Shown here in pieces: positions 2,940-6,869 of a stretch of DNA of 64,000 bases; within the stretch, counting starts at the first letter, position 1; each line of letters opens with the position of its first letter. The notes under the pieces are model-generated. The model searched no databases, was not told the DNA's origin, and was given only the letters and a program-made list of their open reading frames with translations. The stretch is from positions 434,001 to 498,000 of the forward strand of contig JADEYG010000007.1 of NCBI GenBank assembly GCA_016906335.1. Reading direction: 5' to 3'. The translations under genes were made by a program, and so were the position numbers. This DNA comes from Novakomyces olei. Its lineage: Eukaryota.

Positions 2940-5900
2940 CTAAAAACTGCGTCCGCGAACATCCTCAATCTTTTTACATACATCGGAAACGCTTCGTTCC
3001 AGTTCGTTAGCGATCCGCTCCTTTTTATCCATCGGTAGCTGCAAATACCTCTCACAAAAATCCCCATCCACCACACCTTTGCACGGAGCATAATAACCCC
3101 GATAAACTAAATGATCCCGGCCTGTAAGCGGAGGGTCTTCTGTCCGCAGAGCCATTTCAAGATGCGTGAAAAAGTCAACGTCATCACGACTCGCCAATGG
3201 CAAAATTATCCCTATCGTACCCGACAATCCCGAATAAACAAGAATATCGCGGCCGCCACTAACCATTGCCACCTTTTGTATCGATGTGGGGATATCGCCG
3301 AGAAAATAATGTGCCAATAAATTAAGTTTGAACGAGGCACCATTCAAGTAGGGTTTTTCCTGTAGTAAAGTAGACCCGTTAGGATCACTGTCGGATAGTT
3401 CAGATGCCTTTTCCGGGCAGCGCAAGAGCCAGAAATTACCAAATCTGTCTCCGCCCGCGGTCGTTTCATAATCCACCATTGTCATGCAAGTTGTCCATCG
3501 GCTGATAAAATCATCTGCAAAAATAATCAAATGATTGTCCTCATACTTGTACACACAATAGGATAAAGAGTCCTTAATGTCACCAATGACGATACGTGAT
3601 CCCTGTGATTGAAGCGAAACTACAAGGTTCGGAACCTGTGTCTCGCACTTTCTAAGAAGCCTTTTCATACCAATATCGTACAGCCGGACTGCTTTGCCTA
3701 TGCCCGCTAGGATGCGGCCCTGGTAAGCAATGAGAGCACGCGGAACGTCTTCCGTGTCCGTCTTATGGACAAAAGTCAGGGCTTGTCCGTCCTCTGATAT
3801 TTGGTAAATATGTATAAAGCCTTTAGCACAGCCTGGAGGAGAAAGCTTGACATCCTTGCCTGTACCGACAGCCAAATAGTAATTCTCAGAATTATGAAAT
3901 GTAACCACTGCCAAGCTCATGGCCGCCTCATTGTCTTCCAACATTATTTCTCCATACTCTGACAGGTTAATAGGATCAACGCAGGTAATGCTAGACGCCC
4001 AGCGGCCCTGTTCGTAGATAGAATTTGTTCTTTGTGGTATATTTTTGGCCTTCTCCAAAACGCCGTTCGTTGAGTCACCGTTTATCTCTTTAGTTTTGGA
4101 CTCTGCAACATTTTGATCGGCTCCGATCACGTAAAAGACAGGCTCGAGTGGATGATTGACAAACTTCCGTGGCGTCAAATTGAGCGGCATCACCTGCTGC
4201 TTGATTTGCTGGCCCAATTCTTCAGGGTAAAAGATTCTATATTCACGTTAGCAAAGATTCTACGCGTAGCTGAAATATTAATTATCCATTCAATTTTTAT
4301 TCTTGCAGAAAGAAAAGGTTTAAAGCGTCATGTTCTTCAGTAGGAACAATTGGAAATAATGATTTTTTTCGACATCAGTAAATTCCGAATAGTTTCATCA
4401 TCCTTAGGACATTATTCGCTTTATCCAACTTCATTTTGTATATTTCATATATTCCTGTCTTTGGCTTACCGTAAAACTTCATTCGAAATACCAACCACCC
4501 CCTCAGGGCACTGCTCACTGGAAAACGACCAGCCATAATCAAGCCGATCGTAGCTTAGGGGTGCCAGTTGAAGCGAATTCTGATGGGTATAACTTAGCCA
4601 TGAGCGCGAAGAAAGAGCAAGCACAGCAGACTGACCCTCGGCTTTAACATTAAACAGTGAGACTGGCTTTGTTCCCAAGAACCGGGTGCGTGTATCCTTC
4701 AACTGGCCCGAAGTTATGTCCAAGACAGTCCGCAGGTAAACACCACTCGCTAACCCAATGTGCAGAAAATGTGTGACGTCAAAGCTCTCAGACATGGTGT
4801 TCAAGACCAAAGAATTGGCCGGTGATGAAAGTGCTTGCACTGACAGATTCTCCAATGTTGTATCCGGATCCAGCGAGAGAATCCTCACCGTACTGTCCTC
4901 ACAGCCAACGGCCAAGAAGGAATTACGTTGAATGCCTTCCGGAACACTGCCAATACTCAGGGCAGTAACGTTGCCTCCCATGTCCTTGCGGTCTTGATAC
5001 TCGTTGAGTTGGCCCTCGAAATCCATTTCAAAATAGACCAGCTCACACGATGAAAGCGCTAATACGATCTGCCTATTGTTGGCAGTGGCCTTGACTACTG
5101 TTGAGCGGCCGCTCGTTTTCCATTCGTTTATTTGCTTGTCTGCCCTAATGTGACGGATACCACGAGGATGAATTTGAACAAGAGAGTCGTCTCCCAGCTG
5201 TTGTACTGCCATTGTAGGCACAGACAGTAAGAAACCTGAATCAACGACCTCTTCTACCGTCTCACCAATCGTCAGCACTAGCGTTCCATTAGCAAAGGAG
5301 AGTATTATATACGAATCGTATGCATCATCTTTGTGCAATTTGGTCGTGAAAACTGCGTTGGGGATAGCAGGAAGCTCTGACGATACAAGCTCAGAGACGG
5401 AAATTCCTCGGGTGAGTTTCCGTAAGGAAGATCGACTTTGTGATCCACACAAAGCGTAAATGTCTGGGGAATCCTCGCCTGTTAGATTCAACACTTTACA
5501 GTCAACCAAGGGGTCTAATGAAGACATGGAATCGACAAGTACAAGGTTCTCAAGTGGCTCAACCATAAAATGCACAGATTGATTCGGATCTTTGCTGTAA
5601 TCGACTGAAGATAGTTCGGTGCGATTGTCGTCGTCTCCAAGTTTGATGAATTGGTACAAGTGGTGATCACTGCTTTCCGATATACTGAACAGGTAACCGC
5701 TTCTAAAAATCAAAAGCGAATTCGCCGAAGGAATAGTATCAAAATATTTGATTTTTACAGAAAGAGCATGCTTTTTATCCTCGGAAAGGTCAACCGTCAG
5801 CTTGAATAGATCTCCATCCTCATTTTGTAATAATACGAAAAAGATTCCCTTCATTCGGTGCGTTACAAAAGCTGTTATTAAACGCGGACTCTTTGTTCCT

Positions 5901-6869
5901 GCCCGCGAGGGTATGGGAAGCCGCAGACTTTGTGCGTGATGATGCATATATGTAATAAAGCCGTCAGAGCAAACAAGCACACCAGATGGACCATCCTTGC
6001 CTCCCGGCACGGGTATCAACAAATTGGCAGAGCGGTCCACTGCTTCACTAAAACGTCGAACTACGTGATTCAATCCAAGATCAAGTTCATAGTAGGTCAA
6101 GACTTTCTCGACACGCGAATAAGCGTCGGGAGAAGGGTCATCATTGACATCACTATAGTCGATCTCAAGAGCAGCGAAAATAGGATTCTCAAAGCCAACA
6201 TCAAGACTCTTCACGTCAAAAAGAATAGTCTGGGGTTTGTGAGCCTCCAGGGGACTGGAGATCGTAAGATTTGCAGCAGAATCGCGATTTAGAACATAGA
6301 CAATTTTGCTCTTTTCCACAGAGGCAATCATGCAAGTACGTCCCTTAGGGTCCACCGCCAAATACTGACCAGGTACAACTCGCCGTATTCCAGTCTTGCC
6401 AAACGTCTCCATGTGAACTCGCGCAAAAGTTTTCGTTTCTGGTCGGTACTCCAATATGGTTATTCGGCCGGAATCACTTCCCACAATGATATAGTCTACC
6501 TGTTAGATTTCCTGATATTTACCATTACAATTCGTTTTGCTTTGCAATTGGTTTGCTTTGCAATTGATATTGCTTTGTTTTGAATCTAAATAGGGACAAG
6601 AAACGTCATTATTTTCTCTTACCTTTGGGACTGCCTGTGAGACGAAACGCCGCGAGTGATCTGACAATCCCAAATACTTCATGCTGGCAAATTTCTTTGA
6701 GTTTAGCGTTTTCCGTATCCAGGCGCCATAGAGAAAGGGACCGCGCTGTAGCCGTCAATACTTCCTGCTGCTTTGTACCGGAAAATTGGCCAATTACAGC
6801 TGTCTTAAAAGCAGTCGACCGATTAACAGTTAACGCATACAGGTACAAATTCGGCGTAATTGACGCCAT
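2940..6869 (-). CDS. RSE1: U2 snRNP SF3b subunit Rse1/SF3B3
   Basis: Three exons; [66 protein letters not shown] introns at about 6497-6621 and 4237-4469. Confidence 0.97.
4330..4412 (-). ncRNA. Intronic box C/D snoRNA, snR41-like guide for 18S rRNA Am541
   Basis: Minus strand: box C ATGATGA (4401-4395), D' CTGA (4378-4375), D CTGA (4340-4337), terminal stem ATGTcCT/AGaACAT; 13-nt guide TCCAATTGTTCCT complementary to conserved 18S AGGAACAAUUGGA. Confidence 0.88.

Follow-up and report, generated by a model that had tools for sequence, protein, structure and literature searches.

The 64,000-nt stretch of Novakomyces olei DNA analysed here (the window) contains a gene for the splicing factor Rse1/SF3B3, and an earlier note on this DNA had proposed that its second intron conceals an snR41-like box C/D snoRNA. 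The locus raises two questions: whether this intron encodes a methylation guide of a recognisable family, and how such a guide came to reside in a gene of the spliceosome rather than in the snoRNA cluster in which budding yeast carries it.

The RSE1 gene and the snoRNA in its second intron

The RSE1 gene is found on the minus strand and comprises three exons encoding 1189 aa (Table 1). Its two introns were called because the RSE1 reading frame is open only when both are removed. Both RSE1 propeller families of Pfam are matched in exon 2 and CPSF_A in exon 3, and the gene is present as a single copy in the genome. The closest named relatives of the protein are those of Saitoella (64% identity) and Pneumocystis (61% identity), and in a FastTree phylogeny the gene groups with that of Taphrina (support 0.986), from which the source organism is probably a fungus of the Taphrinomycotina. 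A search with the short exon-1 protein returned flatworm proteins only and was set aside for lineage.

Intron 1 contains no snoRNA match to the family profile described below, and its position (aa 82/83) also interrupts the tblastn matches of many homologues. It includes a 15-nt direct repeat and has a CAG acceptor four bases ahead of its TAG acceptor; a splice model using the upstream CAG was rejected, as it leads to an early stop at codon 91. Intron 2 has a GTAAGC donor, a CTAAC branch point and a TAG acceptor. Put at about 230 nt in the earlier note, it measures 233 nt and exceeds all 72 homologous introns measured (126–211 nt). Its 3′-end (4230–4270, minus strand) contains a degenerate 23-nt tandem duplication, with TAGAATCTTT occurring twice, which takes in the branch point, the acceptor and the first exon bases. 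The duplicate acceptor (AG at 4261–4260) precedes the true acceptor by 23 nt and lacks a CTAAC; its use would shift the reading frame.

Table 1. Coordinates of the RSE1 gene and of the snoRNA elements in its second intron (window positions)
Feature	Position	Strand	Basis or remark
RSE1/SF3B3 exon 1 (coding part, ATG at 6869)	6623..6869	-	splice model
RSE1 intron 1, 127 nt	6496..6622	-	splice model
RSE1 exon 2	4470..6495	-	Pfam PF10433 and PF23726; 64% identity to Saitoella Rse1
RSE1 intron 2, 233 nt, snoRNA host	4237..4469	-	phase 2 in codon 758 (L|R-I-F)
RSE1 exon 3 to stop codon (ending at 2940)	2940..4236	-	Pfam CPSF_A
Intron 2 branch point CTAAC	4247..4251	-	read at 4251-4247
Box C/D snoRNA, snR41-I / Nc CD13 / U62 family	4333..4405	-	ends estimated, ~70-75 nt
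External stem, 5′ arm	4406..4423	-	duplex fold
Box C, ATGATGA	4395..4401	-	sequence
Probable box D′ (CGGA), without own guide	4384..4387	-	alignment to homologues
Box C′ (ATGTCGA)	4369..4375	-	conserved block in 51 aligned sequences
Antisense guide to 18S 540-554, target A543	4342..4356	-	13 Watson-Crick pairs (4354-4342) and 2 G-U
Box D, CTGA	4337..4340	-	sequence
External stem, 3′ arm	4321..4336	-	duplex fold

The proposed snoRNA is borne out by the intron sequence, which contains boxes C and D towards the 5′- and 3′-ends of the element, respectively, a D′/C′ region, a guide to the organism's own 18S rRNA and a flanking stem. The guide core, TCCAATTGTTCCT (4354–4342, minus strand), ends 1 nt before box D. 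The perfect 13-nt antisense match to 18S claimed in the earlier note holds against the 18S of this genome, and two G-U pairs extend it to a duplex of 15 bp (−21.4 kcal/mol) with 18S 540–554. By the D+5 rule, the target is A543 of the organism's own 18S, which confirms the predicted equivalence to the yeast Am541 site; the register is that of the Rfam snR41 consensus and of Neurospora crassa (Nc) CD13. In yeast, Am541 is given as 87–99% methylated and attributed to snR41 (PMC5199042).

Across the 14.3-Mb genome there are 11 matches to the 13-mer target, one at the snoRNA locus and ten in the full 18S genes (all but one of the 11 copies), compared with a single match to a reversed control. A search by pattern, and not by RNA profile, for the guide with a box-like GA after it gave one match in the genome, the locus in RSE1 intron 2. 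The eleven full-length 18S genes are found singly over contigs C2, C5, C7, C9 and C12, and form no one tandem array; such dispersed rDNA is unusual in fungi. One 18S copy (G000:C2:748372-750187) has one A missing in the snoRNA target region, which could be either an assembly error or a variant copy.

The internal boxes had been placed differently in the earlier note. Its boxes C and D (4401–4395 and 4340–4337) stand, but the CTGA at 4378–4375 is unlikely to be D′ because it overlaps the conserved C′ block ATGTCGA (4375–4369). Conservation of the boxes in relatives, which the earlier note had named as a check, is evident in this block: across 51 aligned sequences, the TG of C′ is invariant and its G is at least 90% conserved, at positions outside the search pattern. 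Box D′ is probably the degenerate CGGA at 4387–4384, which matches the D′ of homologues, although this assignment is less certain than that of C′. CGGA lies too near box C to leave room for a second guide, and a search for one against the organism's own rDNA unit, U2 and U6 gave a best match of 9 nt, out of register.

The terminal stem of the earlier note is set off from the boxes: the fold of the window snoRNA has no pairing directly beside the C/D motif, and the stem is external, joining 4423–4406 with 4336–4321 through 13 bp (−10.8 kcal/mol). When the 3′ flank was shuffled 2000 times, an equally good stem arose in 0.8% of cases, and the observed stem is the second strongest among 58 distinct flank pairs. 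Across the family, flanks pair better with their own partners than with mismatched ones (−5.1 vs −3.6 kcal/mol). The distances to the splice sites, 68 nt between donor and box C and 100 nt between box D and acceptor, both exceed those of every homologue measured (medians 39 and 66 nt), and the strong outer stem may compensate for this atypical spacing. Neither the intron nor the snoRNA folds better than its shuffles (z 0.35 and −0.90, respectively). The fold energies of C/D RNAs are usually no better than those of shuffled sequences.

Family membership and the two halves of snR41

No Rfam model reached its gathering score anywhere in the window. In the Rfam check suggested in the earlier note, snR41 (RF01218) matches weakly at the locus, with one guide only, and its 19.3 bits (E 6.2) fall below the cut-off of 50 bits. 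SNORD62 (RF00153; cut-off 39 bits) did not match the locus, and its best match in the genome, at 18.6 bits, lies elsewhere. A family profile was built from 50 homologues with the window locus excluded, and scored the locus at 42.4 bits (E 2.6e-12), against 8.1 bits for the runner-up in the window; the 42.4 bits arise partly by construction because box C, guide and box D made up the pattern that had retrieved the homologues. With an Am541-equivalent target, its guide at box D and no Gm1126 guide, the candidate classes by sequence as a member of the snR41-I / Nc CD13 / U62 family, and as an RNA it appears ordinary. This family is missed here by the Rfam gathering thresholds.

In Saccharomyces cerevisiae, snR41 (RF01218, clan CL00068) shares the guide sequence, the register and the target Am541 with the window snoRNA, but there the RNA has two guides, this one upstream of D′ and another for Gm1126, and is encoded in an unspliced cluster. 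In the window snoRNA, the guide lies upstream of D, is the only one, and is encoded in the intron of a protein-coding gene. The other half of yeast snR41 is found elsewhere in the genome. The RF01218 search identified a second locus (G000:C12:1198040) with a 14-nt D guide to 18S 1130–1143 and target G1133, which is the first in a run of four box C/D-like sequences located in intron-like stretches. This locus is assigned as snR41-II (Gm1126-type), kept in the cluster. The D′/C′ region of cluster snR41-II (L016:1501-1599, at G000:C12:1198040) is well formed, and its D′ region resembles snR75, so a second target for this predicted RNA is possible.

The same division has been described in two other ascomycetes. 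Table S2 of PMC4138321 lists snR41 of Schizosaccharomyces pombe as two RNAs, snR41-I and snR41-II, and Table 1 and Additional file 1 of PMC2780460 give the same split for N. crassa, as CD13 and CD9. As described in these papers, S. pombe snR41-I and Nc CD13 resemble the window snoRNA in having one guide only, at box D, for the same adenosine of 18S (Am544 and Am538, respectively), in being intronic, and in lying apart from snR41-II or CD9. Their guide duplexes span 12–13 bp, and the Gm1126-type snR41-II and CD9 belong to cluster III (PMC4138321, PMC2780460). These family members were cloned as cDNA in both species, and the entries of the two papers give them as “intronic” with a chromosome (VI for Nc CD13) and no host gene name (PMC2780460, PMC4138321). 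Guides of the equivalent site are also given for human U62/SNORD62 (Am590) and Arabidopsis snoR41Y (Am543) in PMC3511168. Because the split is seen here, in S. pombe and in N. crassa, the double guide of budding yeast is a special case, and would have arisen by fusion.

Position of the snoRNA intron across fungi

Metagenomes were scanned with a pattern of box C (exact TGATGA), a 30–60 nt gap, the guide and box D, which was found in at least 117 stretches. Among the 117 matches listed, 75 are located in RSE1, on the sense strand and at the same codon and phase. An unconstrained junction search placed 67 of these 75 listed loci at Saitoella aa 763, phase 2, and 72 of the 75 passed a constrained test of the L|R-I-F junction. 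The remaining three (of the 75 listed) show the common donor on inspection, two of them with a diverged exon start and one being incomplete. The free base of the pattern is T in all 75 RSE1-hosted matches listed, in 16 of 16 matches with other hosts and in 2 of 26 chance-like ones. A C′-like regular expression was written after the alignment and does not count as independent evidence.

By nearest named protein, the 75 listed RSE1 hosts comprise Agaricomycetes (11), Lecanoromycetes (12), Acarospora-like fungi (4), Leotiomycetes (9) and Eurotiomycetes (8), with 31 falling below the identity cut. One host gene shares 94% identity with that of Thelephora over 233 aa. In a tree of 52 of the 76 locus sequences (those shorter than 300 aa or identical to another being left out), host genes group with Eurotiomycetes, Leotiomycetes and Lecanoromycetes. 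The host range among the matches listed therefore covers Agaricomycetes and at least three classes of Pezizomycotina, and no Sordariomycetes, Saccharomycotina or non-Dikarya hosts were identified among them. The metagenome matches are not independent, many being resampled species, and they reduce to 50 sequences at a 90% similarity cut. The share of RSE1 genes that keep the intron is not derivable from these counts, because the scan began from the snoRNA, required an exact box C and drew on the at least 117 matches listed. S. pombe snR41-I is outside its reach because its box C is degenerate. Scans of prokaryote and viral collections that began from the gene found no RSE1.

Because the Am541 guide is found in the same RSE1 intron in Ascomycota and Basidiomycota, the window locus is a common state and not a rearrangement. 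The earlier note had seen in it a different arrangement from the cluster-borne snR41; that reading does not hold, as the cluster is kept here with snR41-II and the RSE1 intron is the same across both phyla. Hosting in RSE1 is probably the old state of Dikarya, and the budding-yeast form a derived one.

Within the snoRNA family, the D guide is constant, whereas turnover is seen on the D′ side. Lineage-specific elements of 8–9 nt before D′ match 25S rRNA (e.g., homologues L026, L040, L047 and L105; L044 and L125), and a further such element, TATCGTTAA (e.g., L024 and L089), is shared by several lineages and by the Rfam snR41 consensus.

The other 42 of the 117 matches listed comprise 16 true-looking copies in other hosts and 26 chance-like matches, the latter mostly inside long bacterial-type reading frames. 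The same pattern gave 10 matches in 596 Gb of prokaryote genomes. The family profile scored the 16 copies at 30.7–45.3 bits, and 21 chance-like loci, of which 11 belong to the 26 and 10 are those from prokaryotes, at 28.4 bits or less. Seven of the 16 copies (L049, L055, L066, L071, L078, L086 and L101) lie in near-identical or similar intron-like stretches just after the stop codon of a gene, which is an amino-acid permease at the three loci whose frames were scanned (L049, L066 and L086). Two further copies (L059 and L069) are found in a reading frame that resembles a transporter but matches no Pfam family; their snoRNA core is almost identical to that of the RSE1-hosted L033, while the flanking exons differ, which suggests that the snoRNA intron was recently copied into the transporter-like gene. 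With these 16 true-looking copies, the link between RSE1 and the snoRNA is not absolute. They fit the “constrained drift” model of snoRNA location (PMC3511168) acting on a stable ancestral RSE1 site.

Explanations for the RSE1 site

The locus combines conserved boxes, a guide that matches its target, a single copy and a common intron position, and is very probably an intronic single-guide snoRNA in an old RSE1 home, retained there for delivery of the RNA. The snoRNA would be transcribed as a segment of the RSE1 pre-mRNA; once intron 2 has been spliced out and debranched, the snoRNA would be freed from it and trimmed, with core proteins shielding boxes C and D. This route of release and trimming is established snoRNA biology. 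The RNA would then pair with 18S 540–554 and direct fibrillarin to methylate the ribose of A543, as placed by the D+5 rule. The intron would have been the home of the snoRNA for at least the age of the Ascomycota–Basidiomycota split, and may persist since a constitutively expressed gene supplies a needed RNA; some lineages would have copied or moved the snoRNA to other introns.

A closer tie to the host is conceivable. The output of any intronic snoRNA is expected to depend on splicing, and nothing in the sequence evidence at the locus shows a special link to the spliceosome. A regulatory pairing, in which the intronic snoRNP tunes RSE1 splicing or the supply of SF3b sets snoRNA output and ties ribosome modification to the spliceosome, is unlikely. 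The RSE1 position has lasted through a very long span of evolution, snoRNAs recur in the SF3B3 of animals as well according to PMC12309372, and the frame-shifting duplicate acceptor 23 nt upstream could serve such control. However, that acceptor has no CTAAC of its own, 16 of the 91 true-looking copies among the matches listed are found elsewhere, including the intron after the stop codon of an amino-acid permease, and no conserved element besides the snoRNA stands out in alignments of the snoRNA with 10–12 nt flanks. Broad expression of the host alone accounts for host choice, as argued in PMC3511168. It is equally doubtful that functional coupling, with snoRNP loading or acceptor choice setting the amount of Rse1, has kept the guide in an SF3b-subunit intron since before the Ascomycota–Basidiomycota split; if it were true, branch-point recognition capacity would be linked to ribosome maturation.

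Two further explanations are far less probable than either of these. A lineage-specific or recent move of a yeast-type snR41 from its cluster into RSE1 would agree with S. cerevisiae, in which both guides occur in one RNA of the snR41-snR70-snR51 cluster, but it is largely refuted by the shared RSE1 position from Agaricomycetes to Pezizomycotina. The cluster of this genome, which is present with the Gm1126-type half only, and the two separate RNAs also listed for S. pombe and N. crassa in the papers cited above speak against it too. That the locus is a decayed or chance copy, no longer expressed in N. olei, is the least probable of all. The low Rfam score, the unusual spacing and the existence of chance pattern matches (26 of the 117 metagenome matches listed and 10 in 596 Gb of prokaryote sequence) point that way, whereas the boxes and guide are intact, the guide is the only such one in the genome, the intron is orthologous, and the locus scores 42.4 bits, when none of the 21 chance-like loci tested exceeds 28.4.

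The retention of a snoRNA at a stable RSE1 site, which remains the preferred reading, has parallels in other host genes. In RPL7/snR39-snR59 and NOG2/snR191, the position of the snoRNA intron is likewise fixed across distant fungi (Lim et al., 2021; PMC8476143). As described there, those hosts act in ribosome biogenesis and their pairs survive in S. cerevisiae, whereas RSE1 encodes a subunit of the U2 snRNP. The SF3B3 family hosts intronic C/D snoRNAs in fly, fish, chicken and macaque (SnoBIRD; PMC12309372), and no link to the Am541 guide or to this intron position is shown there. No report of the pair of RSE1 and an Am541 guide was found in the literature consulted, including the relevant parts of PMC3596301 and PMC11028025, and the host name could stand in external snoRNAome tables. 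By term search, neither RSE1 nor prp12 is named in the main text of PMC8476143, PMC5824354, PMC4138321, PMC5033589, PMC8216456 and bioRxiv 2022.12.06.519325, or in the searched supplements of fungal snoRNA papers, including that of PMC8476143.

The RNA, its target and its intronic hosting are of known kinds, and what is added is the fixed position in a splicing-factor gene across Dikarya. This position is relevant to the question of whether snoRNAs change location freely or are kept in place. The copies in other hosts are cases of a snoRNA intron arising in new hosts, and the RSE1-hosted guide gives the likely ancestral state for the fusion that would have produced yeast snR41.
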